From NCBI GenBank assembly GCA_043785945.1, contig JAYVWQ010000078.1:1-33690 (forward strand): a DNA stretch of 33,690 nt, given 5' to 3'. Both the position numbers and the translations under genes were made by a program. Shown here in pieces: positions 4,821-30,358 of this stretch. A model generated the notes under the pieces. That model was not told the DNA's origin, did not search any database, and saw only the letters and a list, made by a program, of their open reading frames with translations. Source of the stretch: Akkermansia sp. Its GTDB lineage: Bacteria; Verrucomicrobiota; Verrucomicrobiia; Limisphaerales; SIBH01. Numbering within the stretch: position 1 is the stretch's first letter; the number at the start of each line of letters is the position of its first letter.

Positions 4821-4849
4821 GGTTTCAGAGTTTCGTTCGGCGGATGAAA

Positions 4850-14953: not shown

Positions 14954-17900
14954 ATGGATTCCAAACCGCCCCGCAGCATCGTCCACCTCGATGCGGATGC
15001 TTTCTTCGCCGCCTGCGAGCAGGCGGCGGATGCGAAGCTGCGCGGCCAGCCCGTGGCGGTGGGCGGCACGGCGCGCGGCATTATCGCCTCGGCCTCCTAC
15101 GAGGCGCGCAAGTTTGGCGTGTTCACGCCCATGCCGACGGTGCGGGCGCGCAAGCTCTGCCCCAAGCTCATCGTGTTGTCCGGCGACTACGAACGTTACG
15201 AGTGGTTTTCCGACACGATGTTCGGCTACTGCCTGGACTTCACGCCCGACGTGGAACAGACCTCGATTGATGAAGGCTACTGCGACCTGACGGCCAACCG
15301 GACGAAGAGCGCGGTGGTGATTGCGCAAATCATCCGCAAGGCGATCACGCAACGGCTGAAAATCACGGTCAGTGAAGGGGTGGGTTCCAACAAGCTCATC
15401 AGCTCGGTCGCGTCGAAGTTCAACAAGCCGGCCGCGTTTTACGAAGTGCGGCCGGGCAGCGAGCGGGCCTTTCTCAGTCCCCTGCCGGTCAAGTGGCTGC
15501 CCGGCGTGGGGCCGAAAACCAGTCTGCGCCTGAACGCGGCGGGACTGGGGCGCATTGAGCAAATCGCTGCGACTCCCTTGGACATGCTGGAGCTGGTGCT
15601 GGGCAGTCAGGCCGCGACCATCCGACAGTTCGCCCACGGCCTTGATGATCGGTTGCTCGTGCCCAAACAGGCGCGGCAGAAGACGTTCAGCAAGCAGGAG
15701 ACGTTTGGCGCAGACATCACCGATGAGGAATACGCGGAAGCCGTCTTGCGCCGCATGGCCGATGAACTCTTTGCCGACGTGCGCGCCGAGGGGCGCACCG
15801 TCCGCACGCTCAACGTGCGGGTGCGCTACAACGACATGGGCGAGGATCAGTTGAGCGAGAGCCTGGCGGAACCGACCGATCTGGAAACCGACATTTACGC
15901 GCGGCTGCACACCATGCTGCGCAAGGCTTGGAAGCGGCGCGTGAGCCTGCGCCTCGTCTCGCTCAAACTCTCCAACCTTTACGACGGCCGCTTTCGCAGT
16001 GAACTGCCGTTGGAAGTGTCGGCGCAACGACAGGAGGCGCGGGGCAAACTCGCCGGGGTGATAGATGAACTGCGCCGGGTGCATGGTCACTCCGCCCTTT
16101 TGCGCGGCCATGACTTCCGGCTGCGGACCCCGCCCCGCGCGGCATTGGAAGAAGTGCCGAAGACTGCGCCGCGCCGCCTCTCCATCATCATTCGTCCTGC
16201 CAAGGTCACGACCTTCGCCCCGCTGCGGATGCACAGTCATTATTCGTTTCTCGACTCGGTGCTTTCCCCCACGGCGCTGGTGGAACTGGCGCGGCAACAT
16301 CACTTGCCCGCCGTGGCCCTGACCGACACCGGCAACCTGCATGGCGCGGTGGAGTTCGTGCAGGCCGCGCAGAAGGCCGGGATCAAACCAATCGTCGGTG
16401 TGGAACTGCCCGTGGAGGGCGGCAGCCTGCTGCTCTACGTCGAGTCGGCGCGCGGCTATCACCAACTCTGCCGTCTGCTCTCGCGCCATGCGGAGCGCAG
16501 CGCCCACGATGGCGATGAAAGCTCGGTCGCGAACCAACAGCGCCGCCCCTTTCGCCGCTCGGAACTGGAAGGCGGCACCGATGGACTGCTCGCAGCGGGC
16601 GATGACGCGGGCTGGGCGGAACTGTTTCCGCAACGCTTCTACCGCCTCGTCACCTCGCGCCAGACGCCCAATGACTTTCCCGCCGTGGCGGCTCCGGCGG
16701 TGCGTTACGCCCTGCCCGGCGACCGGCAGAAATACGACATCGTGCAAAGCATCCGCACGCTGACCCTGCTCCGTGAGACGCATCCCGAGAAGCACGCGGA
16801 CGGGCGCTTTCATTTTCGTCCCCCGGCGGAACTGCTGGGCGCGTGCGGTTCGCATCCCGAATGGCTGCACCACACTTTGGAAATCGCAGAGCGTTGCCAC
16901 TTCGATTTCCCCTTCGGCAAGCCGCAGTTCCCCGACTTCCATCCGCCCGATGGTTCCACGGCGCGCGCGTTCCTGCGCCGCCTCGTCATGGACGGGCTGC
17001 GTTCGCGCTACCGCGAGCGGGCCGCGCAGTTTGCCCCGCAGGTGGAGGAGGAGCTGAACATCATCGCTGCCGTGGGCTACGAATCCTACTTCCTCATGGT
17101 CTGGAGCATCTTGCAGGACTGCCGCGCGCGAGGCATTGAGTGGATCACGCGCGGCTCGGCGGCGGATTCGCTCGTGTGCTACTGCCTGCGCATCTCCGGC
17201 GTGTGCCCCGTCCGCTTCGATCTCTACTTCAAGCGATTCCTCAACCCGGAACGGATGGCCCTGCACAAGCTCCCGGACATCGACATTGATTTCCCGCACG
17301 ACCGGAAGGATGACGTGGTGGATCTCATCTTCGCCCGCTACGGCGCGGAGACATGCGCCGTGGTCGGGGGCTTCTCGACGTTCCAGGCGCGCAGTGCCTT
17401 CGCCGAGTGTGCGAAAGTTTTAGGTGTGGGCGAGCGCGACGTGCGCAAGTTCACCGAGCGTTTTCCCTGGGGCTTCGGCGGCGGCTGGGTGCCGGATGAA
17501 ACCGCGCCCAAGGCCGGTGCGGCGCTGGTGGAACTGTTGCAGGCCAGTCCCGAAACGCGCGACCTGCCAGTGGGTGAAGAGCCTTATCGCACCGCGCTGG
17601 AAATGGCCACGGTGCTGGATGGCCGTCCGCGTTATCCGAAAATGCACCCCTGCGGCGTGGTCCTGTCCTGCCAGCCCATGCACGAACTCACCCCGACCTT
17701 CATCTCAAACAAGCGCCGGGCCACCACCCACTACGACATGGATGGCGTCGAGGAAATCGGCCTGGTGAAGATGGACATTCTCGCGCAAGGCGGACTGGCC
17801 GCGATGCGCGACGCGAAGGATGCGCTGGCCCGGCGCGGCCTCATCGTCGATTTGGAAACCTTGGAGCCTTGGGACGATCCCGAAGTGTGGGAGATGATCG

Positions 17901-19267
17901 CCAGCGGCGGCGCGCGCGCCGTGCATCACATCGAGTCGCCCGCCATGATCAACCTCTGCCGCATGACCAACGTGCGGGAGATCGATGGCATCATTGCCAT
18001 CGTCTCCGTCATTCGTCCCGGCGCAGCGAATGAGTCCAAGAAACTTTCCTTCACCCGGCGTTATCAGGGCATGGAACCGGTTCACTATCCGCACCCCTCG
18101 CTGGAGCCGTGCTTGCGCAGCACCTTCGGACTGGTGGTCTATGAGGAACACATCCTGCAAATCTGCGAAGCCTTCGCCGGTCTGCCCGCCGGCCGCGCGG
18201 ATGTCCTGCGCCGGGCGCTGGTGAAACAGAAGCGCGCCGTCGTCGCCGAGATTGCCTTGGAGTTTGATGCGAGCGCCCGAGCGCGCGGACACGACGAGGC
18301 GAAGATTGCCGAAGTGTGGGAACTGGTCACGGGCTTCAACGGCTACGCTTTCAACAAGGCGCACTCCACGGCCTACGGGGTCGAGGCTTATCAGGCCGCG
18401 TGGCTGAAACGCTATCACCCGGCCGAGTTCATGGCCGGTGTGCTGACCAACGGCAAAGGCTTTTATCATCCGCTCGTCTATGTGCTCGAATGTCATCGGC
18501 TCGGCCTGAAGTTCCTGCCGGCGTCGGTCAACGAGCCGGGGCCGTCCTTCGTGCCGCATGGCCCGGCCATCCGCGTGCCGTTGACCCGCGTGAAGGGATT
18601 GACCACGCGCACCACGGATCGCCTCGTCGCCGCGCGGTTGGAAGGCGCGTTCACTTCGCTACGCGATTTTTTTCACCGCGTTGCGCCCACAGGCGAAGAA
18701 CTGGAGGCCATGATCCGTGCCGGAGCTTTCGATGAGTTCGGAGACGCACGCACGCGGCAGTTCTGGCAGGCGCAGCATCTGTTGAAGACTTTCGCGGGCA
18801 CCGCCGAGCCGGGCCAGGCATGGCTGCTGCCCCCACCGGGCTTGGAACAACTGCCCGGCCTTCCGCTCAATGAGCCGACGCGGCTGGAACGCCTGCAATC
18901 AGAAACGGAATTGTTCGGCTTCGCCGTCAGCGGCCATCCGCTCGAACTGTTCCCCGATGTGGCGTGGGACACATATTGCCCGGTCAATCGTCTCGGTCAG
19001 TTCATTGGTGAGACGGTCACAACTTGCGGCCTGGTGGTGGAACAACGCACGCATCATCAAGCCACGGGCGAGCCAATGAAATTCATGTCCATCGCCGACC
19101 GCACGGGCATCGTGGAAACAGAAATGTTCGCCGACAGCTACCGCAGCCACGCGCTCGCCACTGTCCGCTATCCGGTGCTGGAAGTGACGGCGACCGTCGA
19201 GCCATTCGAGAATGGACGCGGCTTTTCGTTGCGGATCATCAGGGCCGGAGAACCTAGGAAGAAGTAA
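14954..19267 (+). CDS. dnaE2: Single-ORF fusion: DinB-like Y-family DNA polymerase (aa 1 to about 350) + linker + DnaE2 error-prone Pol III alpha-like polymerase (aa about 421-1437)
   Basis: Y-family part: IVHLDADAFFAACEQ, SIDEGYCDLT (acidic catalytic residues present), NKLISSVASKFNKP and LPGVGPKT, plus a little-finger region. DnaE2 part: PHP domain FAPLRMHSHYSFLDS..VALTDTGNLHGAVEF, palm LPDIDIDFPHDRKDDV, KMDILAQGGL, and C-terminal OB fold (TVTTCGLVVEQR..MKFMSIADRTG). No stop or frame change lies between the parts. Confidence 0.85.
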   Translation: MDSKPPRSIVHLDADAFFAACEQAADAKLRGQPVAVGGTARGIIASASYEARKFGVFTPMPTVRARKLCPKLIVLSGDYERYEWFSDTMFGYCLDFTPDVEQTSIDEGYCDLTANRTKSAVVIAQIIRKAITQRLKITVSEGVGSNKLISSVASKFNKPAAFYEVRPGSERAFLSPLPVKWLPGVGPKTSLRLNAAGLGRIEQIAATPLDMLELVLGSQAATIRQFAHGLDDRLLVPKQARQKTFSKQETFGADITDEEYAEAVLRRMADELFADVRAEGRTVRTLNVRVRYNDMGEDQLSESLAEPTDLETDIYARLHTMLRKAWKRRVSLRLVSLKLSNLYDGRFRSELPLEVSAQRQEARGKLAGVIDELRRVHGHSALLRGHDFRLRTPPRAALEEVPKTAPRRLSIIIRPAKVTTFAPLRMHSHYSFLDSVLSPTALVELARQHHLPAVALTDTGNLHGAVEFVQAAQKAGIKPIVGVELPVEGGSLLLYVESARGYHQLCRLLSRHAERSAHDGDESSVANQQRRPFRRSELEGGTDGLLAAGDDAGWAELFPQRFYRLVTSRQTPNDFPAVAAPAVRYALPGDRQKYDIVQSIRTLTLLRETHPEKHADGRFHFRPPAELLGACGSHPEWLHHTLEIAERCHFDFPFGKPQFPDFHPPDGSTARAFLRRLVMDGLRSRYRERAAQFAPQVEEELNIIAAVGYESYFLMVWSILQDCRARGIEWITRGSAADSLVCYCLRISGVCPVRFDLYFKRFLNPERMALHKLPDIDIDFPHDRKDDVVDLIFARYGAETCAVVGGFSTFQARSAFAECAKVLGVGERDVRKFTERFPWGFGGGWVPDETAPKAGAALVELLQASPETRDLPVGEEPYRTALEMATVLDGRPRYPKMHPCGVVLSCQPMHELTPTFISNKRRATTHYDMDGVEEIGLVKMDILAQGGLAAMRDAKDALARRGLIVDLETLEPWDDPEVWEMIASGGARAVHHIESPAMINLCRMTNVREIDGIIAIVSVIRPGAANESKKLSFTRRYQGMEPVHYPHPSLEPCLRSTFGLVVYEEHILQICEAFAGLPAGRADVLRRALVKQKRAVVAEIALEFDASARARGHDEAKIAEVWELVTGFNGYAFNKAHSTAYGVEAYQAAWLKRYHPAEFMAGVLTNGKGFYHPLVYVLECHRLGLKFLPASVNEPGPSFVPHGPAIRVPLTRVKGLTTRTTDRLVAARLEGAFTSLRDFFHRVAPTGEELEAMIRAGAFDEFGDARTRQFWQAQHLLKTFAGTAEPGQAWLLPPPGLEQLPGLPLNEPTRLERLQSETELFGFAVSGHPLELFPDVAWDTYCPVNRLGQFIGETVTTCGLVVEQRTHHQATGEPMKFMSIADRTGIVETEMFADSYRSHALATVRYPVLEVTATVEPFENGRGFSLRIIRAGEPRKK

Positions 19268-19268
19268 C

Positions 19269-19616
19269 ATGGCTGTCGGTCAACTCTGGCTCTTTCCGCC
19301 GCCCCGACCTCTCGTCGAACGACTGGGTGAGGAGTTCTTTCGCACCCTGCCCACTGCGCCCGGCGTCTATCTCATGTGCGGCGAGCGCGAAGGCGTTCTT
19401 TACGTGGGCAAGGCGCGCAATCTGCGCAAGCGCCTCTCCAGCTACCGGGTCGCGAATCCCGAACGCCTCCCGCGTCGCATCATCCGCCTGCTGTATCAAG
19501 TTCGCCGCATCGAATTGGATGTGTGTGCCACGGAAGCCGCCGCACGGCACCGGGAGGAGGAATTGATCGGTGTCCTGCAACCGCGCTTCAATCGGGCTGG
19601 CGTGGTGTGGCCGTGA
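19269..19616 (+). CDS. Stand-alone GIY-YIG nuclease-domain protein (UvrC N-terminal / Cho-like), 115 aa
   Basis: The ATG lies 1 nt after the dnaE2 TAA (19265-19267). PGVYLMCGEREGVLYVGKARNLRKRLSSY closely matches the UvrC GIY-YIG signature. The downstream EEELIGVLQPRFNRAG supplies the conserved Glu and Asn. Confidence 0.8.
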   Translation: MAVGQLWLFPPPRPLVERLGEEFFRTLPTAPGVYLMCGEREGVLYVGKARNLRKRLSSYRVANPERLPRRIIRLLYQVRRIELDVCATEAAARHREEELIGVLQPRFNRAGVVWP

Positions 19617-19801: not shown

Positions 19802-21208
19802 ATGGAAATTCGCTTCTCATGCCCTGGCTGTTCACAACATCTTTCGGTTTCGCCGCGAGCAGCAGGACAAGCGGTTGAGTGTCCATCGTGCGGCCAGACT
19901 ATGACGGTTCCTTCTGCTTCGCCCGAACCGCCCTCGCTGGTGCCGACTCCCGAATCAGCTTCTGATCACACCGAAACTTTCGTGGTGCCAGCTCATGCTC
20001 CACCTCCCCCGCGCACGGATCAAGGCGATCTGACTTGTCCGGTCTGCTGGTTGAAATTTGACGCTGGAGACGTGATGCACGTCGCGGTGCATGACTCCCT
20101 GCGCGGCGATCCGGTGCTGGGGGAGGACGCACCACAACGCTTCCACGCCACGCGCTTCAACGACGCCAGCCAGGCGCTTGATGCGATGGGGCTGCCGTGC
20201 CTCGACGTGGCTTGTCCGCATTGTCGGCGCAAGTTTCCTCCCGGCTTTCTGGATGTGCCGTATCACATCATCTCATTGGTCGGTGATCAGAGCGCGGGCA
20301 AGTCGTATTACCTCAGCGTGATGGCGAAGGTATTCCCGGCGAGTCTGTACCGGCATTTCGGCGTCACCTGCCAGGACGCGGACCCGACCGGCAACGCACC
20401 GCTCAACGACATGAAAAGCGTGCTCTTTAGCGCGCAATCGCCGGAACAGGCACGTCTTGCCAAGACGCAACTCGAAGGCGCGATGTACGAACGCCTGCCG
20501 CGTCACGGTCGCATGGTCGCGCTGCCCAAACCTTTTGTTTATTCCTTGCGCGGCAATCACGGCGGCGACTCGGCGTGTTCTCTGATTTTTTACGACAACG
20601 CTGGCGAGCATTTTCAACCGGGCCGCGACGTAACGGAACAACCCGGTGCGCTGCATGTGGCGAGCGCGGCAGGTATTCTGTTTCTGTTTGATCCGTTCAA
20701 CAGCCCGGAGTTTCGCAAGTGCATCGGACGGACGGATGATCCGCAGATGGAAAAGCCCGCCATCGATCAACAAGACGTGATTCTTTCGGAAATGCGGTCG
20801 CGCATTCAAAAGATTCGGAACTTGCGCAGTGGGGAAAAAATCCCAACACCGCTCGCCGTGCTCGTGGGCAAGTGCGATGCGTGGCTGCACTTGCTCGAAG
20901 GCGGACCGCTGGCGCATCCGCTCGTGAACGGTGCGCTCTCACTCGACATCATTCGCACCAATTCGCGGCGCATCCGGGAATTTCTCGTTTCCGCCTGCCC
21001 AACGGTCGTGGCGAACGCCGAGGCGTTGAGCGAACATGTTGTCTTTTTCGCCGTCAGTGCGTTCGGTCACACGCCTGTAAAAATTGCGGGCAACGCCTAC
21101 GTGCCCGATCCCGCGCAGTTGGCTCCGGTGCAAGTGGAAGTCCCGCCGCTCTGGTTGTTGTCGCAAATTTCGCCGGGCCTCGTGCGGGCCACGGAAACCG
21201 TCGCCTGA
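19802..21208 (+). CDS. Double zinc-ribbon + Ras-like (TRAFAC) GTPase, 468 aa
   Basis: I prefer the start MEIRFSCPGC at 19802. The ORF-track extension back to 19376 overlaps the GIY-YIG gene and is Arg/Pro-rich junk. ZnR1 is CPGC-x16-CPSC. ZnR2 is CPVC...CPHC. G1 is GDQSAGKS (20282..20305), G3 is DNAGE (20594..20608), G4-like is VGKCD (20866..20877) and G5-like is VSAFG. Confidence 0.85.
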   Translation: MEIRFSCPGCSQHLSVSPRAAGQAVECPSCGQTMTVPSASPEPPSLVPTPESASDHTETFVVPAHAPPPPRTDQGDLTCPVCWLKFDAGDVMHVAVHDSLRGDPVLGEDAPQRFHATRFNDASQALDAMGLPCLDVACPHCRRKFPPGFLDVPYHIISLVGDQSAGKSYYLSVMAKVFPASLYRHFGVTCQDADPTGNAPLNDMKSVLFSAQSPEQARLAKTQLEGAMYERLPRHGRMVALPKPFVYSLRGNHGGDSACSLIFYDNAGEHFQPGRDVTEQPGALHVASAAGILFLFDPFNSPEFRKCIGRTDDPQMEKPAIDQQDVILSEMRSRIQKIRNLRSGEKIPTPLAVLVGKCDAWLHLLEGGPLAHPLVNGALSLDIIRTNSRRIREFLVSACPTVVANAEALSEHVVFFAVSAFGHTPVKIAGNAYVPDPAQLAPVQVEVPPLWLLSQISPGLVRATETVA

Positions 21209-21209
21209 C

Positions 21210-23699
21210 ATGCCGCAGCAACTCATCTACACCAGCGCACCGCGCGGACTGGCGGCAGGCCGGGCCGGCTTTTGCACGGTGGCGATGAGTGTGGGATTGC
21301 GTGAGGCGCTGGCGCTGAAACTGGAGCAGATCAGTTACTTCGATCATGGCGCGATGGGCGCGGGTGAGCAGGTGATTCGCGCCTTTCGTCTCATAGACCT
21401 TCGGGGCACCCGTTATTTTGTCCTCTCACGCGTGCAGGATTGCGGACTCGATTTCACGCAACGAACTAATTTCATCGCGCACCATCTGATCTTCACGCCG
21501 GAAGAAGTTTCTGACGTTGCCAGGCCACCGGAAATCTTCCGGCAATGGAACGGCTGGCTGACTCGCTGGGATGGTGAGCCAAGCGTTTTATCGGATAATG
21601 ACTGGGGCAACCTCTATGCAATTCCCAGCCGCCAGCCGCCGGCCCGCGCCTGGGCGCGACTCGCTGGCGATGCGATGAACGCCTTTGCTCTCCTTGAAAC
21701 GTCCGGTCTCCTGTTGAACGTCGAGGGCGTGGCGGATGACGCCGTGCTCGATTTGTTTGCCGAGTCCTTGGCGCTGCTGGAAGCGCGCGAGGCCCGCGAC
21801 TTCCGTGCCGCCGCCTGGCAGTTCACTTTCACCACGGCTTTACAGAATCAGGATGCCCCGGCGGAGTTTCGCTGGCGCTGCGTGCGCGGCGATGGCGGAG
21901 GGTTGACCAACCTAGGCTCGGCGCGCGTTCAGCCGCTGCTGCAACTTCGTCCGGCCCGCGTCAGCGTGGGCGAAGCGTCGTTCGCACGCTCCGGCTATCA
22001 GCCGCCGAAGATTCTCGCGGAGCCGAAAGACGCTTACGCAAGTGAAGGCGAAAGCGTGACATTGCGCGTGGACGTGAGCGGCCTGCCAACGCCGAATCGT
22101 TTCCAGTGGTTCAGTCTCTCCCGCACTGGCGCGGAAGAACCCCTCGCCGACGCGAGCAGCGCCGAGTTGAGCATCCGTCCGGCGCGCGGGATGAATCGTT
22201 ACTGCGTCAAGATTTCCAATCTGCGTGGTGACACCGTGATGAGCCGCGTGGCGCAAGTCTCCGTGGACGCGGCCGTGAGAGTGCCCGGTCTTCAAGCTCC
22301 TCGCACCACGTCCGCACCGGCGGGCGTTCACCAAACTGCAAGGGCCGCAAAAGAGTGGACGGCTGATCCGTTGGAAGCGGAGACATTTAGGCTCCAAGTG
22401 GAAGAACGCGAACGGAAGCGAAGCCGAAATCGGATGCTTTTAGTAACTGTCGCGGTTTTTGCTCTGGTTGGCATCGTGGTTGGATTCTTGGTGGTGAAAC
22501 GTCCTGACCTTTTTTTGAATCGGCACCGTGCCGATGCTTCGCAATTGGAGGGGAGCGACGAAACTAACAAGACCAATGAGAGAACACCACCTGTCACATC
22601 TCCTGCAAAACCCATACGCGACATTGGGGCCAACGAGCGCGTGGCCGAGTCGCAAGATGCCTTGAAGGAGAAGGTGTTTCTTGCGCTGTTGACAGCGAAG
22701 AGCGACATCCCGATTCGTGGAGCACTTGCCGCGAAGCTGCGGCGCTTTTTCGTCGGAACGACGAACGGATCGCCAATGTCCGTGGCAAGCAGCGATAAGC
22801 CAGATCGGGCGCTACTGCCGAAGGAGAAGGAACAAGAAATCAAAGCAGATCGGAAGATTGACATCAAAATCAGCACCAATTCGCTGCATCTGACGACGAA
22901 CAATACTGACGTGGTTTTGTCAGCTACCGTCTTAAAGAGTCCAGTCCTCCTTCGATTTGTCGATAAGTCTTCACCAATCGGGGAGTCCTTTCAGTTACTT
23001 GTGTGGCCGAATAATCCCGCCGTCCCGGCGGAATTGACGTTCGTTAATGCCCACCTCCAACTCATGGATGGGTGGCCGCAAATCCTTGCCGCGACTGAAG
23101 GTGAACATTTTTTCTTCAACGGGAATCACCCCGACATGGACACGGTTAAAAGCAACAAAATCGAACGCAGCTACGCAATCGAATACAAGCCCGCTTTTGA
23201 GACGAGACGGCGAGATGCAGCCAAAATGTTGACGACATACGAGTCTTGGCGCGACGCAACTGAGAAAATGGTTCGGCTTCGCGACAAGGTCGGCCTTGGG
23301 AAAACCAGCGCAGATTCATTGAATGGCATCTGGGACGAAGTTCAGGCTGTCTGCATCGAAGCTGTCGGAGCGACGCGGCGCGATTTCAATTTCAGCAATC
23401 CTCAAAACGACAATCGAAAAAGCGACGCGCAACGAATTGTGCAGGAATGGCGCTCTTTACGAAAACCAGACTTGGAATTGGCTGAGGCAGCTTTGAGTGG
23501 CCTCACCATTGATGCACTCGAACAAATCGTCGGCAACGGACAGCAATCCATGCGAACGCTTGATGGAGCGCGGCAGACTCTGAAAGAAAGAATCGACAGT
23601 GCGAAAGCGCAACAATCATTCTCCGCAGCCAAGATAACTTGCCAAATCCATTACGGGAAACCCGACGGGCAAGTGCTTGTGCAATTCAAAGTCAAATGA
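21210..23699 (+). CDS. Membrane-anchored protein: GTPase-associated-protein (GAP1-N2)-like N-terminal domain + Ig (I-set-like) domain + TM helix + about 390-aa C-terminal domain of unknown fold
   Basis: The ATG lies 1 nt after the preceding TGA. The N-terminus MPQQLIYTSAPRGLAAGRAGFCTVAMS resembles the QLHYTS..G..GFQ..A.S signature I recall for GAP1-type proteins. The Ig-like segment is PPKILAEPKDAYASEGESVTLRVDVSGLPTPNRFQWF...YCVKISNLRGDTVMSRVAQVSV (about 22002..22270). The TM helix is MLLVTVAVFALVGIVVGFLVV (about 22433..22495). The C-terminal half is visibly more A/T-rich than its surroundings. Confidence 0.8.
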   Translation: MPQQLIYTSAPRGLAAGRAGFCTVAMSVGLREALALKLEQISYFDHGAMGAGEQVIRAFRLIDLRGTRYFVLSRVQDCGLDFTQRTNFIAHHLIFTPEEVSDVARPPEIFRQWNGWLTRWDGEPSVLSDNDWGNLYAIPSRQPPARAWARLAGDAMNAFALLETSGLLLNVEGVADDAVLDLFAESLALLEAREARDFRAAAWQFTFTTALQNQDAPAEFRWRCVRGDGGGLTNLGSARVQPLLQLRPARVSVGEASFARSGYQPPKILAEPKDAYASEGESVTLRVDVSGLPTPNRFQWFSLSRTGAEEPLADASSAELSIRPARGMNRYCVKISNLRGDTVMSRVAQVSVDAAVRVPGLQAPRTTSAPAGVHQTARAAKEWTADPLEAETFRLQVEERERKRSRNRMLLVTVAVFALVGIVVGFLVVKRPDLFLNRHRADASQLEGSDETNKTNERTPPVTSPAKPIRDIGANERVAESQDALKEKVFLALLTAKSDIPIRGALAAKLRRFFVGTTNGSPMSVASSDKPDRALLPKEKEQEIKADRKIDIKISTNSLHLTTNNTDVVLSATVLKSPVLLRFVDKSSPIGESFQLLVWPNNPAVPAELTFVNAHLQLMDGWPQILAATEGEHFFFNGNHPDMDTVKSNKIERSYAIEYKPAFETRRRDAAKMLTTYESWRDATEKMVRLRDKVGLGKTSADSLNGIWDEVQAVCIEAVGATRRDFNFSNPQNDNRKSDAQRIVQEWRSLRKPDLELAEAALSGLTIDALEQIVGNGQQSMRTLDGARQTLKERIDSAKAQQSFSAAKITCQIHYGKPDGQVLVQFKVK

Positions 23700-26677
23700 A
23701 CCTTCTCGAAACCAAACGGCTGGTGCGGAAGATCGGGGAACTGCTCCACGAGCAGGGTGACGCGGCGATGGCCCCGAAGCTGGCGCAAGATTTTGTTGCC
23801 GCGTGTCGCGCCGTGATCGTGCGCTTGAACCAGTGCGAGGCGATGATTTCCTCCAACGAGGGGATGCAGGCGCTGCAACTCGCTGAGACGTCGCCGAATT
23901 TGATGGACCTCCTGGCTTCGCTGGAATTTCGCGAAGCAGCGGCTTGGCGAAAGTATTGCCGTGAGCACGAACTTCCGGTTGCGGAGACATTCGACGAACG
24001 CGCCGTCCACAAGCTGAACGAGTGCTACGCGCGCGGCATCAACACGGACCATCCCCTGTATCGTGATTACCGTCGCGCGATGGTGCTCAAGGATGACGAG
24101 GCTGCATTGACCGTTTTGCGCACCATCGGACGGATCAATACCGCCGATGACAATGCGCGTTCGGAACTGGCGCGGCTCGACCGCAAGGTTTTGAACGAGC
24201 GACTTGCCGCGCTGGGGCAATTGCTCGACAGCGGTTCTCCTGTAGAGATTGCGCGTGAGGTTAGCGACATCGAATCAAGCGCGTTTCAAAACAGTCCGGC
24301 GGGCGAGATTTGGCGCAGCGCGCAAGCGATTCGCTGCGACGTGTTGCTCGACGCCATTGCGGTGGACCGGCAGAGCAACGATTGGCGCAGCGCGCTTGAC
24401 CGTTTGGATTTCATAGCGGGATTGCAACGCGATTGGGATTTTTCTCTCGATGCGGCGGCGCAATCACGCTTCTCGGAACTGTGGGCCTGGGCGGAGAACG
24501 AACGATACAAGGATGAGCAGGATCGGCTTTTCAAGTCGCTGCTGGTGCAACTGCGCCACCTCGTCGATCTGAGCGAGGAAAAAGAAATCGCCGCGCGGGA
24601 AATCGAATTGCCGGAGTTGAAGGCCGATTTGGAAGAATTGCAGAAGAAGTGGCGAGCCATCGAACAGTTCGCGCGTCCGGTGCCGGACGATCTGACGGCG
24701 CGCTATCGCAAACGCGTGGCACTGGTGCAGGCGGAGGTTTCGCGGCGGGTACGGCTGCGGGTCCGCAACATCGCCATCGGTGTGGCAGCCGCATTGCTGT
24801 TGATCGCGGGCACAACTTGGACGTTTCAACAGCATCTCAAGGGCAAGGACTTCGTTCACCAACTTCAAGCGGCACGCGAGCAACGGCTGGCACGAACGGC
24901 GGAAAAACTCGTGGCGCACACGCGCGACACGGATCGTGGACTCTCGGGCAAGAGCGGCGTGCCGGCTGCGCTCGCGGAAACAGAAACTTTTCTCAAACGC
25001 GAACTCGGCCTGCTGGAAAGTTTCCAAGGAGCAACGCGCGAACTGCCATCCGACCTCGCGGGCTTGACCGGGGCGGAGCAATTGAAGGCCACTCATCAGC
25101 GGCTGGCGAATGTCACGAATCTGCTGGCGCAACTCGCGCCCGACTTGCGGGCGGAAAGCGAGCCGAAGCTGAACGCCTGGCGCGCCGCCTGGACGCGGCA
25201 TTTGTTCGAGCGCAGCACGGAATTGAACAAAAGCTTTGAGAGCGCATTGCGGCAAGCCGAGCAAAACGCGGCGCGGATGAATTTCTCCCTGTCCACCGCT
25301 GCCGCACGCGCGGACGTGGCGTCGGTGGGAGCGGAGTTGTCAAAACTCGCGGACGAGGAACAGGCGTTCACCGGAGCGTTGCGCTGGCGCAGTGAGTTGC
25401 TGCAACGGTCCAAGGAACTGCGCGACAAGCACAGCGCGTTTGCGGGTGAGTTGGGAAAGTTTGACGCCGCGTGGTCCGGGGTCGCGCGGGCGCGCAACAC
25501 CACCGACTTCAACGCATCCGTGGCCGCGCTGTCGCGCTCTGAATTTACCACCGCGCCAGAAGTGCGAGCCGCCGGTTCGGTGCGTGACCTGGAGTTTTCG
25601 GACGAGTCGCTGTTGCGCTCGTTGCTCTGCGGCAATGATGTCGGCCTCTGGAACCACATCAGCGGCTCCGCCCCGATGGATTTTATGCCGAAGGCCGTGA
25701 TGCCCGCCGAGAAAATGAAACTGCTCGAACTGAAAAACGAAGACGCGATCAACCCGGAGCATTACTGCTACTCACTGCGCCTCACCGTGGAGCCGCCGTC
25801 CTCGGTGACGTGGATCACGGAAGGCAAACTCAACAACACCGAACAGATTTGGAGAAAAATACGGGCTTTTGTACCCACCGCTGCCACAACTTCATGCGAA
25901 TTTCGTATGGCTGAATACGGGTGGTTCGATGGTCGCTACGTTTTACCTTCAAAGCAGCAACTTCAAGACGTTCGGCTGATCGGGCCATGCACGGAGGCAA
26001 AATCCTTCTACGCACTCCGGCTGCCGGAACTGATGGCGCTGCACAACGACACCTACCAATTTCCACTGCTCAAGAAGCTGGATGAACTCAAGACGGGGCG
26101 CGAGGACTCGCCTCTTTTCCGGGCCTACCTTTTCCTACGGCTGTGCGAATTGATGGACTTGCAGCCGGAAGGTTGGGGCGTGCCATTCGCTCCTTCATTG
26201 GCGGCGGATCGCGAGCGGCTGGTGAGCGCGGGCGGGTCAGAAGTGCGCAGCGGCGACTGGTACGTGCCAACACGCGGGCAGAGGCTGGCTACGCCGTTGC
26301 AGAAAGTTTTCGAGCAAGCCGCCAGCATCTCGTACTGGGAACAGGCGCAAACGTCGGCCAAAGTTTTTCGGGCCACACTCGCCGCCGGTGTCCGCTACGT
26401 GGGGTACGTGGACGCGGACGGCAAATTGCGGGCGGGCGAAACGACCACGGGCGAAATTTGGGGCTGGGAATCTGGCACGCGCAAACCAGCCGTCCTCGCG
26501 GTTAGCACACCTTCCGGTTGGAAATCCATTTCGGCACCGCTTCCCTGCTCGCCGCTGTTCGCATTCGCGGAAGACCGCGCCGCGCTGCTGGTCAAGGCTG
26601 GCGTGAAGCCTGGCGACACGATGATGAATTCCGCGCTGCCCGTCGTGTTCCGCACGGTCGCTCCTAAAACTAAATGA
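23696..26677 (+). CDS. Large (993 aa) predominantly alpha-helical / coiled-coil protein with one TM helix
   Basis: ATGA overlap with the upstream gene (23696..23699). Start at MNLLETKRLVRKIGELL. TM helix IAIGVAAALLLIAGTTWTF (about 24769..24825). Composition is helical and heptad-like throughout. I recognise no catalytic motif. Confidence 0.8.
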   Translation: MNLLETKRLVRKIGELLHEQGDAAMAPKLAQDFVAACRAVIVRLNQCEAMISSNEGMQALQLAETSPNLMDLLASLEFREAAAWRKYCREHELPVAETFDERAVHKLNECYARGINTDHPLYRDYRRAMVLKDDEAALTVLRTIGRINTADDNARSELARLDRKVLNERLAALGQLLDSGSPVEIAREVSDIESSAFQNSPAGEIWRSAQAIRCDVLLDAIAVDRQSNDWRSALDRLDFIAGLQRDWDFSLDAAAQSRFSELWAWAENERYKDEQDRLFKSLLVQLRHLVDLSEEKEIAAREIELPELKADLEELQKKWRAIEQFARPVPDDLTARYRKRVALVQAEVSRRVRLRVRNIAIGVAAALLLIAGTTWTFQQHLKGKDFVHQLQAAREQRLARTAEKLVAHTRDTDRGLSGKSGVPAALAETETFLKRELGLLESFQGATRELPSDLAGLTGAEQLKATHQRLANVTNLLAQLAPDLRAESEPKLNAWRAAWTRHLFERSTELNKSFESALRQAEQNAARMNFSLSTAAARADVASVGAELSKLADEEQAFTGALRWRSELLQRSKELRDKHSAFAGELGKFDAAWSGVARARNTTDFNASVAALSRSEFTTAPEVRAAGSVRDLEFSDESLLRSLLCGNDVGLWNHISGSAPMDFMPKAVMPAEKMKLLELKNEDAINPEHYCYSLRLTVEPPSSVTWITEGKLNNTEQIWRKIRAFVPTAATTSCEFRMAEYGWFDGRYVLPSKQQLQDVRLIGPCTEAKSFYALRLPELMALHNDTYQFPLLKKLDELKTGREDSPLFRAYLFLRLCELMDLQPEGWGVPFAPSLAADRERLVSAGGSEVRSGDWYVPTRGQRLATPLQKVFEQAASISYWEQAQTSAKVFRATLAAGVRYVGYVDADGKLRAGETTTGEIWGWESGTRKPAVLAVSTPSGWKSISAPLPCSPLFAFAEDRAALLVKAGVKPGDTMMNSALPVVFRTVAPKTK

Positions 26678-27474
26678 ATCCAAACCCGCCACCGCCCTTT
26701 TCATCGGAGCCGAGTTACGACGGCCCGCTGCGATTGAGTTGGCGTGGTCGCGAGGAGGGGCCGTTCCTGTGGGCGGAGATTGAGCGTCGGCTGACTGCGA
26801 ATGAGATCGGCCTGTTCCATGAAGTGCAAGTGGACGGCGCATGGATGACGCTGCGCGCCTTCCTTGAATTGCGTGAAGCCGCACAACTAGAGGCAAAGGC
26901 GCGACGGGAAGAAGCCGAGCGTGTTGCCAATGTCCACGCGGCGCGTGCCGCCGAGGACCGCGCCGCGCGGCATCAGTCCGAAGTGCTCGCGGAGGAAAAG
27001 CGCAAGAACGATTTGATGGCGGCGGCGCTTGGCCTGCCACAAGGGAAGAAAAGTCCGATGTCACTCCCACGCTTGCTGCGGAACATCGCGCTTGTCCTGG
27101 TGCTGGTGTGTGGCGTATTTGCCGCGTATCAGGCGTATCGCATTCCCGAACTCACCGCGCTCTCGGCCCGCGCCCGCGAAGTCGCCGCGAAATTCAACTA
27201 CGTCGATTCGCCGACGGCGAGCCGCCTGGGCATCAATCTTTTCGCGTCGCTCTTTGGTGATGCGCGTGATGTGCGCGACGCCATTGCGGAAGTTTCGCAG
27301 ACCATCGGCGACAAAGAGAAGCTTCAGCAACGCTATCAATGGATGGCGACGCAATTGAGCGCGGAGTTGGAGACGGCGGGCATCGCGCGCAACTGGGCGC
27401 TGCTCCTGGGTTGCTGCTTCGCCATCGCTGCGATTTGTTTTCACTTCGGAGCACGCAACGACCAAACCGTATGA
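26674..27474 (+). CDS. GYF_2 (DUF4339)-like domain protein with coiled coil and two TM helices
   Basis: ATGA overlap at 26674..26677. The GYF-like region is LRLSWRGREEGPFLWAEIERRLTANEIGLFHEVQVDGAWMTLRAFLE. A charged coil follows. TM helices are LLRNIALVLVLVCGVFAAYQAY and NWALLLGCCFAIAAICFHFG. Confidence 0.8.
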   Translation: MNPNPPPPFSSEPSYDGPLRLSWRGREEGPFLWAEIERRLTANEIGLFHEVQVDGAWMTLRAFLELREAAQLEAKARREEAERVANVHAARAAEDRAARHQSEVLAEEKRKNDLMAAALGLPQGKKSPMSLPRLLRNIALVLVLVCGVFAAYQAYRIPELTALSARAREVAAKFNYVDSPTASRLGINLFASLFGDARDVRDAIAEVSQTIGDKEKLQQRYQWMATQLSAELETAGIARNWALLLGCCFAIAAICFHFGARNDQTV

Positions 27475-28358
27475 ACACTGCCGCCACCTCAGCACCTTTG
27501 CCCGCCGCCGCCCCTGAACTTGCGTTGGCGTGGACACAACAAGATTACGAGAACCGCATCGGTTTTCGCGGCGGGCGCTACATGAGCGTGAATCATCTGC
27601 TCGCGTTTCTTGCGGCGCTGCTCGGCACGGTGGCGGCGTTCGCGCTCGCGGTCTTTGTCCTCAAACCGATTTCTTTCACCGCGCCCGTCGGCGAAATGTT
27701 CCTTCGGCCTGGCAACCAGTTCACCGTTATTCCGGCGACTGTATTTTTCTTCTGGGGTGCGGCCGTGCTTTTCATCAAACACCACAAATTGAAGCTTCAG
27801 GAACGGTCGCTCGCGCTGTCGCCGGTGCCGGCGGAACCGGAGTTTGTGCTGACTGAGGCCACGGCGAATTCGGTGCTCTCACGGCTGCACGCAATTGTGG
27901 ATCACCCGCGCCATTTTGTTTTGCTCAACCGCATCGACCGCGCGTTGTCGAACTTGCGGAACATAGGACAGGTGAACGACGTGTCCTCCATCTTGCGCGC
28001 CCAGGCGGAGAACGATGAGGATCACGTCGCGTCGAGTTACACGCTGGTCAACGGGCTGGTCTGGGCCATCCCCGTGCTGGGCTTCATCGGCACCGTGCAG
28101 GGCTTGAGCATGGCCATCGGGAAGTTCGGCCAGACGCTCCAAACGTCGGGCGACATCTCGGCCATCCGCCAGTCGTTGCAAGGCGTGACCGGCGGACTGG
28201 CGACGGCCTTCGAGACAACGCTCGTGGCGCTGGTCTTCGCGCTGATCCTGCAACTCTGGATCACCTTTCAACAACGGCGTGAGATGGCGTTCCTCGATGA
28301 GTGCAATGACTACTGCCATTCGCATGTCGTGGCGAAACTTCGTCTGACCAATCGCTGA
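27471..28358 (+). CDS. MotA/TolQ/ExbB-family proton (ion) channel protein
   Basis: ATGA overlap at 27471..27474. Multiple TM helices are present. The family signature near the C-terminus is LVWAIPVLGFIGTVQGLSMAI ... VTGGLATAFETTLVALVFALILQLW. Confidence 0.88.
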   Translation: MNTAATSAPLPAAAPELALAWTQQDYENRIGFRGGRYMSVNHLLAFLAALLGTVAAFALAVFVLKPISFTAPVGEMFLRPGNQFTVIPATVFFFWGAAVLFIKHHKLKLQERSLALSPVPAEPEFVLTEATANSVLSRLHAIVDHPRHFVLLNRIDRALSNLRNIGQVNDVSSILRAQAENDEDHVASSYTLVNGLVWAIPVLGFIGTVQGLSMAIGKFGQTLQTSGDISAIRQSLQGVTGGLATAFETTLVALVFALILQLWITFQQRREMAFLDECNDYCHSHVVAKLRLTNR

Positions 28359-28361
28359 CTC

Positions 28362-29444
28362 ATGGCGAGCCGTCTGCGCAGAAATAACTGGGCGCGAATC
28401 AGTTTCTTCGCGTTCCAGGACATTATCACTGCGGTCAGCGGCATCCTGATTCTGATCACGCTCATCCTCGCGACTGATTTGGATCGCACCACGAGCGCAC
28501 GTTCCACCGAGCTTCAACCCGAATTGGAAATGCGGCTGGCCCAATTGCTGGAAGAACAAACGGCACTGGAACTGTTGAACCAGCAATTGCGGCAGTCGCT
28601 CACCGGAGCGCGCAACGCACCGGGACTCGAACAACTCACGAATGAAATTCGTGACCTGAAACAGCGTCTCGACGCGATGCAGGGCAAATTTACGAATTTG
28701 CTGGCCGTTGCCACCGCGCAACGGGCCGCTCAAGCGGAACGCGACGCCCGTCTGGGATTGGCGGCTTTCAGCGCCGACATCGACGCGCTGAACAAGGAAA
28801 ACACAAAACTGGCCGCACTGGTCGCCGATGCACGGCGCAAAATGGACCGCGCAGAATCCGAAGTGAAGCGCGCCGAGAACATCGTGCTCAAAAGCCGTGC
28901 GCGATCTGGAATGTGGGTGCTTCCTGATGACCGCAGCACAACAAAAGAACCGTTGCTCGTGACGATCAGTGGCAGCGAAGTAATTGCGGAGCGTTTCGAC
29001 CAACCGGACAAACAACTGAGATGGGCGAGCGGCGGGGCGTCTGCGGACTTTCGCCGTTTCCTCGCGGTCGTGAACAAGGACAATCAGTACATCGTGTTCT
29101 TCGTGCGCCCGTCCGGCATCCGGCTTTTTGAGCAGTTGTCTGACCTCGCCCGCGCGCAGCAAATCGACATCGGGTTCGACGCCGTTGAAGAAAAGCAAGA
29201 AGTGCATTTCTCCAAGCCGCCGCCGATTGAGGCAGACCCCGATACCACAACACCCGTTCGTCCGCCGGTTGGTCCCGGAACGATGTCGGTCGGAGATTCT
29301 TCACCTGCAACACCCATCAAATCTGCGACGGCTGAACCGGCGACTGTGCCGGCGAGCAAGCCGCCGGCTGTTGCTGCGCCCGCCGTCCCCTCTGCCCCTG
29401 CTTCATGGTGGCGGCGTCTTCTAAAATCCTTGGGACTCGCATGA
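28362..29444 (+). CDS. ExbD/TolR/MotB-like single-pass stator partner 1 (TM Asp, coiled coil, globular C-terminal domain, Pro-rich tail)
   Basis: Starts 3 nt after the MotA-like stop. The N-terminus RISFFAFQDIITAVSGILILITLILA has an Asp codon at 28419..28421. A long coiled coil follows. The C-terminal domain is ..YIVFFVRPSGIRLFEQLSDLARAQQIDIGFD.. followed by a P/A-rich tail. Confidence 0.75.
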   Translation: MASRLRRNNWARISFFAFQDIITAVSGILILITLILATDLDRTTSARSTELQPELEMRLAQLLEEQTALELLNQQLRQSLTGARNAPGLEQLTNEIRDLKQRLDAMQGKFTNLLAVATAQRAAQAERDARLGLAAFSADIDALNKENTKLAALVADARRKMDRAESEVKRAENIVLKSRARSGMWVLPDDRSTTKEPLLVTISGSEVIAERFDQPDKQLRWASGGASADFRRFLAVVNKDNQYIVFFVRPSGIRLFEQLSDLARAQQIDIGFDAVEEKQEVHFSKPPPIEADPDTTTPVRPPVGPGTMSVGDSSPATPIKSATAEPATVPASKPPAVAAPAVPSAPASWWRRLLKSLGLA

Positions 29445-30358
29445 GCTTTCGCCGCCAATCACGGGGCGACAGCCTCGACCTGCTGCTCGACACGATGTGC
29501 AACACGTTCGGTGGCATCATCATGCTCGCGGTGCTGGTGACGTTGCTTTCCAAGCAGGAGCGCAGTGGACGCGCTACCGTCGATTCCGAGGAAATGATGC
29601 GTCGGAGAATCAGCGAGGGTGAACTGACTTTGAAGGAAAGCCGCGCGGCGAACGCCAACCTCGTCACCGATGCGGGCGACTCTGACACCAAGAAGCGTTT
29701 GGAAGCCGTAGCGGAAAAAAAGGCGCTGCGATCCATGCTCGAAGCCTCGGCGCGCGACGCCGAGGCTGCAAATGCAAGCCAGCCGCTCGCCGCTCGGGAT
29801 GCCGCCGCGCGTATGGCGCAGTTGCGCGAGGAAATGACGAAAGCCATTGCCACGCGCACTGATTTGAGCAACCAGTTGTCCACGGCGGAGATCAACACGC
29901 GCCGACTCACCGCGCGGGCCAGTGATTTGGCAAAGCAGGCCGCCGCATTGCAGAGCGCGTCCGTGCAAAAGCTGCGTTTGCCGAAAGAACATTTCACCGG
30001 CAAGTCGGTCGTGAACGTGATTATCCAATACGGCAAGGTCTATCCGGTGCATACCACGTCCAGAGCAAGAAACACGGCACACGTTGAATTCACCAAGAAT
30101 GGAAATGGCGTGACTGTTCGGCCCCTGCCGGAAGCTGGCCTCGATGTACGGAGCAATGATTGGAAGAACTGGCTGAACCGGCTCGCGGCCAACCGGGAAT
30201 ACATTGGGTTTTATGTGTTCGAGGACTCATTCGGCGCTTTCAACGCAGCCAAGAAGGCCACAGTGGACGCAGGATTTGATTATGGATGGGAACCGGAACA
30301 ATTGGCCTCCGGTCCCCTGTCATTCGGCGCAGTGGGTTCCCAGCCAAAAGCTCAGTAA
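29441..30358 (+). CDS. ExbD/TolR/MotB-like single-pass stator partner 2 (paralog of the preceding gene)
   Basis: ATGA overlap at 29441..29444. The N-terminus SLDLLLDTMCNTFGGIIMLAVLVTLL has an Asp codon at 29489..29491. A coiled coil follows. The C-terminal domain ..EYIGFYVFEDSFGAFNAAKKATVDAGFDYGWE.. has the same pattern as the upstream paralog. Confidence 0.75.
   Translation: MSFRRQSRGDSLDLLLDTMCNTFGGIIMLAVLVTLLSKQERSGRATVDSEEMMRRRISEGELTLKESRAANANLVTDAGDSDTKKRLEAVAEKKALRSMLEASARDAEAANASQPLAARDAAARMAQLREEMTKAIATRTDLSNQLSTAEINTRRLTARASDLAKQAAALQSASVQKLRLPKEHFTGKSVVNVIIQYGKVYPVHTTSRARNTAHVEFTKNGNGVTVRPLPEAGLDVRSNDWKNWLNRLAANREYIGFYVFEDSFGAFNAAKKATVDAGFDYGWEPEQLASGPLSFGAVGSQPKAQ

Follow-up and report, generated by a model that had tools for sequence, protein, structure and literature searches.

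What does a MotA/ExbB-like gene do when it is followed by two different partner genes, each encoding a single membrane helix with an embedded aspartate and a long arm behind it? The question is raised by three adjoining genes, here called A, B1 and B2 (27471-30358), in a 33,690-nucleotide (nt) stretch of DNA from Akkermansia sp. (assembly GCA_043785945.1, contig JAYVWQ010000078.1, positions 1 to 33,690, forward strand), which we refer to in its full length as the window. An initial annotation, made from the letters alone, had read the trio as a heteromeric 5:2 motor. Our analysis leads us to favor, at somewhat better than even confidence, a proton-driven 5:2-type unit of composition A5:B1:B2, whose periplasmic shaft would be a heterodimer and which would act as the envelope part of a conflict system under the control of a GTPase switch. 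Its function is one that we infer, as are the 5:2 stoichiometry, the rotation, the topology, the direction of signaling and the role against invaders. The core of the earlier reading stood, namely, one MotA/ExbB subunit and two Asp-bearing single-pass partners, to which the co-variation of their spacers can now be added; direct membership of the B proteins in the ExbD/TolR families did not. The earlier account had also missed the context of the trio, which forms the 3' half of a DO-GTPase/GAP1-N2 operon.

Relatives were collected by a pattern scan of GTDB species genomes (185,579 species), which returned 167 stretches encoding B2 relatives. Eighty of these loci were kept and joined by three metagenome contigs, and the open reading frames (ORFs) of the resulting 83 related loci were searched with iterated hidden Markov models (HMMs).

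One MotA/TolQ/ExbB-family subunit and two aspartate-bearing partners

A, B1 and B2 are closely packed on the + strand, and we take them to be real genes, as the initial annotation had it, given that homologs are numerous in metagenomes and metagenome-assembled genomes (MAGs). The ATG of A (27471-28358, +; 295 amino acids [aa]) overlaps the stop codon of the upstream gene (ATGA). B1 (28362-29444, +; 360 aa) was described from the B1 alignment, an AF2 model of its domain, Foldseek and hhalign, and B2 (29441-30358, +; 305 aa) from the B2 alignment, its paralogy to B1 and an AF2 model. The longest ORF of B2 opens at 29405; the real start was placed at 29441, given that homolog alignments begin at MSFRR or MNLRR and that this start overlaps the B1 stop (ATGA). 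A reverse-strand ORF at 27879-29207 was taken as a shadow ORF of GC-rich coding DNA, since homology and synteny all lie on the + strand.

Judged by its sequence, A is a MotA/TolQ/ExbB-family protein that retains both pore threonines, and the MotA-family signature previously read in it was borne out. It passes the Pfam MotA_ExbB profile (PF01618; 36.8 bits against a cut-off of 22.9, E = 3.9e-9), which is carried by every A homolog among the matches listed. Hydropathy predicts four hydrophobic helices (residues 46-64, 84-102, 191-214 and 242-260), the second and third of which are separated by a loop of ~85 residues, a MotA-like topology. The last two helices are closest to TolQ/ExbB, with hhalign E values of 4.9e-6 against Escherichia coli TolQ, 3.4e-4 against ExbB and 0.059 against MotA. 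The pore-lining threonines of these helices are T145 and T178 in TolQ and T148 and T181 in ExbB, and in the hhalign alignment T208 of A falls on TolQ T145 and T250 on TolQ T178. Both residues are kept in at least 97% of 64 homologs, as is the GFIGTV motif. The sequence of A is unusually well conserved overall (67-77% identity across the 119 best database homologs). Its cytoplasmic tail is short (residues 269-295, window 28275-28358) and ends about 30 residues past the last helix. Three tail residues within FLDECNDYCHSH, namely, E271, C278 and C282, are likewise kept in at least 97% of the 64 homologs, and this cluster may be a metal-binding or contact site present in five copies per pentamer.

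The B proteins each open with a transpore helix. In B1 it spans residues 13-38 and carries D20 (codon 28419-28421) within the motif FFAFxDIITxxxG, invariant among 30 aligned B1-type proteins; in B2 it spans residues 12-36 and carries D17 (codon 29489-29491) within LLDTMCNxFGG, invariant among 35 aligned B2-type proteins. The single N-terminal helix with an embedded Asp that had been noticed in both proteins was thus confirmed. The initial annotation had held that a lack of conservation of this residue in orthologs would speak against its reading, and we found the Asp in all 72 scorable B1/B2 pairs. Basic residues stand ahead of both helices, and an N-in, C-out topology is therefore predicted. 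B1 and B2 are paralogous over their full length (hhalign probability 98.4%, E = 7e-15), which upholds the earlier description of a related C-terminal globular domain. That domain covers approximately residues 183-290 in B1 (AF2 model with a predicted local distance difference test [pLDDT] score of 81) and residues 176-305 in B2 (pLDDT 88), where it has an extra beta-hairpin, and its modeled topology is beta-beta-(beta-beta)-alpha-beta-alpha-beta(-beta). B2 carries an invariant LRLPKE. B1 continues into a tip (residues 291-360, window 29232-29441) made of a Pro/Ala-rich linker and a C-terminal helix, SWWRRLLKSLGLA, with the conserved amphipathic pattern SWWxRLLxxxGL. In some relatives the tip is swapped for a Trypsin_2 peptidase at about residues 325-475 or for extensions of 80-110 residues without a Pfam family (P0316, P0360, P0399, P0031, P0044). 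Apart from coiled-coil noise, scans against Pfam, NCBIfam and PADLOC assigned neither B protein to a family; at E <= 1 Pfam found no OmpA, MotB_plug, vWA or other domain in them, in line with the lack of an OmpA-like domain reported earlier. B1 and B2 together probably form a heteromeric axle.

Matched spacer lengths in B1 and B2

Each B protein has a helical spacer of about 140 residues between its transpore helix and its C-terminal domain (residues ~45-182 in B1, ~40-175 in B2), and the conserved Pro with which the domain begins lies 168 residues past the Asp in B1 and 164 in B2. Heptad-like periodicity (~3.4-3.55 residues) was significant in segments only, reaching its peak (z up to 5) in the final ~50 residues. 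Given that the periodicity is segmental and follows no coherent register, the spacer is a segmented helical rod rather than a proven continuous 150-residue coiled coil. The long helical element of the initial annotation therefore holds, and its single coiled coil of about 150 residues does not.

We measured the spacer as the Asp-to-Pro distance, anchored by HMM alignment, in 72 loci. The lengths in B1 and B2 co-vary across these loci with a Pearson r of 0.88, a statistic that is inflated by the relatedness of the sequences. At least eight distinct length classes shift together in the two proteins, with paired B1/B2 values of 101/104, 103/108, 130/131, 138/138, 147/144, 151/155, 160/164, 169/167 and 172/172. 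Joint changes of this kind are predicted by a parallel B1/B2 rod and not by independent arms, and the co-variation argues that the two rods pair.

The trio as the 3' half of a seven-gene operon

Upstream of the trio, four genes on the same strand encode a DO-GTPase-like protein, a GAP1-N2 protein, a 993-aa membrane protein and a 266-aa protein (p266). The seven genes, in the order DO-GTPase, GAP1-N2, p1012, p266, A, B1 and B2, are translationally coupled, with ATGA overlaps at four of their junctions and gaps of 1-3 nt at the other two. Terminator-like motifs inside the operon were not commoner than in shuffled sequence.

The DO-GTPase-like protein (19802-21208, +) has about 468 aa counted from MEIRFSCPGC; the listed ORF opens at 19376. 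It contains two CxxC zinc-ribbon pairs, with matches to Pfam zinc ribbons, a P-loop (GDQSAGKS) and a Walker-B-like FYDNAGE, and its gene is the first of the cassette in related loci. The GAP1-N2 gene (21210-23699, +; 829 aa) starts 1 nt past the GTPase stop. Its product matches GAP1-N2 well above threshold (PF20013; E = 1.2e-22, 80.9 bits against a cut-off of 24), a domain likewise present in two related loci (L001 and L002), and also contains an Ig_3 domain (3.4e-7) and one membrane helix (ORF residues 453-471) followed by about 400 residues. No FN3 domain was found by Pfam in the operon proteins, the nearest being this Ig_3.

The conserved 993-aa membrane protein (p1012, also p993; 23696-26677, +) begins in an ATGA overlap with the GAP1 stop. 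From hydropathy it is predicted to consist of about 355 helical N-terminal residues, the stretch RRVRLRVR, one membrane helix and about 615 periplasmic residues; it belongs to no Pfam, NCBIfam or PADLOC family. Protein p266 (26674-27474, +; 266 aa) is joined by ATGA overlaps on both sides and has membrane helices at residues 134-152 and 242-260. Its N-terminus (residues 15-65, window 26674-26850; LSWRGREEGPFLWAEIERRLTANEIGLFHEVQVDGAWMTLRAFLEL) looks GYF_2-like by eye, and the Pfam scan gave no GYF match. In some relatives p266 is absent or duplicated, and its homologs show a weak DUF6264 match.

DO-GTPase/GAP1-N2 systems are predicted conflict systems that occur in Verrucomicrobia and Planctomycetes and include many membrane components (PMC7159879). 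For the planctomycete representatives, a GYF-plus-membrane protein and trypsin fusions are mentioned (PMC7159879).

Other genes of the window include, just upstream of the GTPase operon, a 1437-aa ORF (14954-19267, +) with IMS, IMS_C and IMS_HHH domains together with PHP, DNA_pol3_alpha, finger, HHH_6 and OB domains. This looks like an ImuB-DnaE2 fusion, that is, a Y-family polymerase joined to a full DnaE-type Pol III alpha. On the - strand, a YhcG PDDEXK nuclease with DUF1016_N (3507-4853) adjoins a protein with DUF4041 and T5orf172/MUG113 (4850-6571); the pair at 3507-6571 is of the defense or mobile-element type.

Distribution and gene order of related loci

The related loci come mostly from Verrucomicrobiota, and others belong to Lentisphaerota/Victivallales, Planctomycetota and Desulfamplus/Desulfobacterales. 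Culturable carriers include Desulfamplus magnetovallimortis (L054), a Victivallis isolate and a Prosthecobacter isolate. The order GTPase-GAP1-p1012-(p266)-A-B1-B2 is found in almost every locus with enough upstream DNA. Among the 83 loci, 21 have the exact seven-gene order and 11 lack p266 only; most of the others are cut by contig ends, and a few are split or rearranged (L053, L054, L063, L066, L069, L075). In eight fully covered loci, identity to the window proteins was 70% for A, 62% for the GTPase and 37-42% for GAP1, p1012, B1 and B2. Among representative proteins, the B-type profile matched 392 clusters at E <= 1e-30; relaxing the threshold to E <= 1e-3 raised this number to 3580, the weak end of which may include unrelated coiled-coil proteins. 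The notion of a phage-borne module was unsupported, IMG/VR being without relatives.

Around related cassettes we found, among others, genes for Abi_2, AAA_21/DUF4276 and a TrwC relaxase. In one locus (L001, 3215-9355), TerB/TerB_C, BrxC_BrxD-like and DEAD/Helicase_C genes stand between the p1012 and p266 homologs, co-directional with them and with overlapping boundaries.

The closest plasmid relatives of A (~30% identity) come from Microcystis and Anabaena, and each is followed by proteins of 153 aa and 231-236 aa. The 153-aa proteins are spacer-less B1 homologs (hhalign against spacer-deleted B1: probability 98.4%, E of about 9e-15, 139 columns), and the 231-236-aa proteins are of the B2 type (hhalign E = 4e-13 to 1e-17). 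These short homologs have the compact size and layout of ExbD.

The Microcystis aeruginosa NIES-2481 plasmid p1 (L167, 3906-11436) carries a Zorya-like module that encodes a CBASS cyclase with a two-transmembrane (2TM) effector, an HKD-SNF2 protein (PADLOC C3a139, 3e-65), an A-like protein of 470 aa with a ZorA3-like tail, the 153-aa B1 and a 236-aa B2. This short B1 has Ser at the position of the canonical Asp, with an Asp six residues before it. On plasmid pANACY.03 of Anabaena cylindrica PCC 7122 (L168, 1-9415), the short A-B-B genes come immediately after a type III-B Cmr operon (cas10, cmr3, cmr4, cmr6) and a gene for a 510-aa protein that belongs to no Pfam family, all on one strand; viperin is encoded about 3.6 kb further along.

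A proposed proton-driven unit and the results that weigh against it

We propose that the A pentamer would enclose two transpore helices, one of B1 and one of B2, each with a proton-binding Asp. The ~140-residue helical spacer of each B protein would be an acquired insertion, placed behind the transpore helix and ahead of an ExbD/TolR-like alpha/beta domain, and the paired spacers would form a heterodimeric rod that holds both alpha/beta domains and the variable B1 tip far from the inner membrane. The trio would not act alone and would instead be the membrane and periplasmic module of the seven-gene operon. If Zorya and the GAP1-N2 conflict model are taken as analogs, the periplasmic assembly of B1/B2 rod, p1012 and GAP1 C-terminus could sense or act on the envelope. 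Proton flow through A and the B proteins could, on the same analogy, power or gate a conformational or rotary output, with the cytoplasmic GTPase/GAP1 pair setting the on/off threshold.

A number of results weigh against this reading, and many of them concern the relationship of B1 and B2 to ExbD and TolR. Pfam ExbD (PF02472) gave no match at E <= 10 in B1, B2 or 35 B2 homologs, and ten B1/B2 homolog constructs from which the spacer had been deleted in silico gave no Pfam ExbD or MotB match at the same threshold. The B1 and B2 profiles found nothing by hhalign in the single E. coli TolR and ExbD sequences, and the B1 helix aligned with E. coli MotB residues 28-45, D20 on D32, at a P of only 0.02. 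Since the 83 related loci contain no canonical ExbD, TolR or MotB gene that could serve as a reference, an ExbD profile was built from 80 proteobacterial loci. The B1 domain aligned colinearly with this profile, but with a direct hhalign P of only 0.02-0.03, and B2 and helix-only segments gave nothing. In Foldseek searches with the B1 domain model, TolR (5by4) ranked seventh (E = 7e-3, probability 1.00, template modeling [TM] scores of 0.44/0.49, root mean square deviation of 3.7 A over 92 columns), on par with ribosomal uS11 and RNase-H-like folds. No PDB match reached E <= 1e-3, and the B2 model found TolR at E = 0.5 only. When solved structures were searched with profiles of the full-length B alignments, all that came back were coiled-coil proteins, and among representative proteins the full-length B profile recovered only members of the family itself (157-589 aa), none of which led on to canonical ExbD.

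The short cyanobacterial homologs supply such a link. The Anabaena 153-aa B1 matches Pfam ExbD across helix and domain at E = 0.0036 (17.8 bits, below the cut-off of 25.4) and the proteobacterial ExbD profile at an hhalign E of 4.7e-5. When short homologs were added to the B1 profile, the merged profile aligned with ExbD over 106 colinear columns at E = 4.7e-4, with D20 on ExbD D25; reversed-profile controls gave 0.05-0.34. Direct tests mostly fail, and the tie, which runs through these short proteins, is transitive. B1 and B2 are probable, highly divergent members of the ExbD/TolR superfamily with a helical insertion. The "ExbD/TolR-like" label of the initial annotation has behind it only the Asp helix, the transitive link and a weak TolR fold match, and lacks the Pfam ExbD match that the name would suggest.

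The remaining points on this side concern the rod, the operon and the proposed role. One coherent heptad register across the whole spacer was not significant, and the co-variation of spacer lengths is in part phylogenetic inertia of related sequences. The upstream GTPase scored 22.1 bits against Pfam DO-GTPase2 (PF19993), under the cut-off of 27, and the match was "faint" in L002 as well. B1-B2 sits apart from A in a few genomes, namely, one Limisphaerales MAG, Desulfamplus and other Desulfobacterales (L053, L066, L069, L054, L063), where the pair lies away from the A and GTPase genes among unrelated metabolic and signaling genes; we regard B1-B2 as the tightest unit of the cassette for this very reason. 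No relatives occur in the viral contigs of IMG/VR. PADLOC does not recognize the system, A giving only weak matches to its ZorA profiles (~23 bits, E = 6e-6). The literature searched contained no experimental work on GAP1-N2 systems, nor any paper on them besides the one that defined them (PMC7159879), and the defense role is for that reason conjecture.

Alternative explanations

We considered whether A, B1 and B2 could be a gated proton leak rather than a motor, such that firing of the GTPase/GAP1 switch or a disturbance of the rods would unplug the channel, the membrane would depolarize and the infected cell would stop growing (abortive infection). Plug-deleted MotB leaks protons and arrests growth, which counts toward this possibility, and A, with its 295 aa, has neither a long cytoplasmic tail nor an obvious cytoplasmic output surface. 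The short A-B-B modules, moreover, lie beside type III-B Cmr genes in Anabaena and beside a CBASS cyclase and 2TM effector in Microcystis, settings in which membrane effectors are typical. The trio would then be a functional equivalent of the SLATT two-helix pore effectors that are fused to GAP1 in other GAP1-N2 systems (PMC7159879). However, a simple leak would have no need of matched 140-residue rods, a conserved distal alpha/beta domain and exchangeable B1 tips that include a protease; all six or seven genes stay constant and are not swapped as effectors are, and the architecture is that of force-generating relatives. We consider a leak unlikely on balance. A different view of the long arms would make B1 and B2 peripheral force transducers of the TolA/TonB type that stand outside the A pentamer, with the true axle encoded elsewhere or absent. 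An anchor helix, a long helical or extended region and a C-terminal alpha/beta domain do resemble TolA. The invariant Asp at the position of ExbD D25, where TolA and TonB have an SHLS/His motif, makes this very improbable, as do the lack of another ExbD/TolR-like gene in the operon and the short homologs, which have the size and layout of ExbD and a sub-threshold Pfam ExbD match.

The trio could also belong to a housekeeping or behavioral envelope machine of Planctomycetes-Verrucomicrobia-Chlamydiae (PVC) bacteria with no part in immunity, for instance, a Tol-Pal-like tether, a surface-transport or gliding motor or a secretion energizer, in which the GTPase would be a spatial or assembly switch like MglA. 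The match of the one-A, two-B layout to AglRQS, with a GTPase in the same operon, speaks for such a machine, as do the strong conservation of A (67-77% identity) and the large periplasmic parts of several components. Uncharacterized tolQ-like genes with paired tolR-like genes are, in addition, recorded for the PVC group in a survey of force transducers (PMC12204202). The spread of the family is nevertheless patchy, with 167 stretches in 185,579 species across distant phyla, and its neighbors are often defense or mobile genes, down to the helicase, TerB and BrxC-like insertions in one cassette. Related modules stand beside CRISPR or CBASS genes on plasmids, and general Pfam scans of the window ORFs, which did not include a specific Glt search, found no glt, gld or pal-like partners. 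We therefore think an envelope machine of this kind quite unlikely.

We return to the proton-driven A5:B1:B2 unit. With it, the ion-driven 5:2 machines would gain a large branch that is unannotated at present, and its two different axle subunits, with rods required to match in length, would provide a built-in experimental handle. For GAP1-N2 GTPase systems, about which only comparative genomics has spoken so far, it would also supply a concrete output, mechanical or ionic, for the first time, and together with Zorya it would suggest that the coupling of proton motors to immune or conflict signaling arose more than once. The variable B1 tip and the short cyanobacterial versions near CRISPR and CBASS genes offer natural comparisons for the role of the motor. 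Going further, we tentatively raise the possibility, which we hold to be rather doubtful, of an undescribed class of motor-coupled conflict system. Its A5:B1:B2 rotary unit would have exchangeable shaft tips (the amphipathic WW helix, a trypsin-like protease and others), would be switched by DO-GTPase/GAP1-N2 and would survey or attack at the envelope during invasion; the short B1/B2 pair would be the membrane module for Zorya-like and type III CRISPR-associated cyanobacterial defenses.

Comparison with known systems

TolQR and ExbBD share with the trio the PF01618 match of A, its last two helices and its pore threonines, the Asp near the cytoplasmic end of the B helix that falls on ExbD D25 and a C-terminal domain of the beta-beta-alpha-beta-alpha-beta type with a weak TolR/ExbD match. 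In contrast to them, A has four helices, as MotA does, rather than three, and the B-type partner is encoded twice, by two different genes. The B helix and the domain are set apart by about 140 helical residues, whereas canonical ExbD and TolR are compact proteins of about 140 aa with a short linker. The trio also has no TolA/TonB, Pal or TonB-dependent receptor partner here, and is linked to a GTPase operon, and B1 and B2 fail the Pfam ExbD threshold. MotB and ZorB differ in another respect, given that B1 and B2 have neither an OmpA-like peptidoglycan-binding domain nor a plug helix (Pfam, E <= 1). The term "stator" used in the initial annotation is a misnomer, since no rotor or flagellar genes lie nearby.

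AglRQS of Myxococcus, in which one TolQ-like gene is followed by two distinct TolR-like genes, shares the arrangement that is conserved here as A-B1-B2. A small GTPase, MglA, regulates this gliding motor. AglQ and AglS are, however, short, rodless TolR-like proteins, and the GTPase belongs to a different family. A long shaft is found in GldLM/PorLM, the 5:2 motor of type IX secretion and gliding, whose two-copy subunit forms a periplasmic shaft that carries output across the periplasm. In GldM, however, two identical chains with beta-rich domains make up the shaft instead of a helical heterodimer; GldL shows no detectable sequence similarity to A, and the gene context is another.

The nearest precedent is found in the "heterologous pairs" of transpore-helix-vWA proteins and the paired tolR-like genes beside tolQ-like genes, including those of Verrucomicrobia, for which rotation inside the pentamer and action at a distance have been proposed in the case of the vWA pairs (PMC12204202, 2025). 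The initial annotation, which had called two B subunits per A uncommon and named AglRQS as the known case, is outdated in this regard. The vWA pairs, which are frequent in Verrucomicrobia, likewise consist of two different Asp-bearing, noncanonical partners beside a TolQ-like gene without a canonical tolR or exbD, and they differ in that B1 and B2 have a helical rod and an ExbD-like domain and no vWA match. A coiled coil is nowhere mentioned in that paper, and no GTPase or GAP1 operon is described in its force-transducer section (PMC12204202). Coiled-coil B subunits and GTPases are likewise absent from a survey of MotAB relatives.

Zorya resembles the system in placing a MotA-family motor within a conflict-type gene set and in the weak matches of A to ZorA profiles, and the A-like protein of the cyanobacterial module in Microcystis, encoded next to the HKD-SNF2 protein, has a ZorA3-like tail. 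The long extension lies on the periplasmic B side here rather than in a cytoplasmic ZorA tail, and the partners are a GTPase and GAP1-N2. We conclude that the A-B1-B2 system is not Zorya, given that the ZorA tail is missing, as are a ZorB that binds peptidoglycan and the partners ZorC-G.

With the DO-GTPase/GAP1-N2 systems the operon shares a GAP1-N2 domain above threshold and many membrane components; its upstream GTPase shows two CxxC pairs and a Walker-B-like Glu but scores below the DO-GTPase2 cut-off. It differs in its linked genes, the themes of which are tubulin, HSP70 and kinase in those systems, and the FNIII-repeat protein described there was not found here (PMC7159879). The main text and one supplementary file of that work make no mention of MotA, ExbB, TolQ or ExbD (PMC7159879), and the literature searched contained no description of a motor trio paired with a GTPase/GAP1-N2 operon. 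The A-B1-B2 system is thus set apart from all of the systems compared by a rod and an ExbD-like domain on both B proteins, by the matched lengths of the two rods and by its fixed coupling to a GTPase/GAP1-N2 pair.

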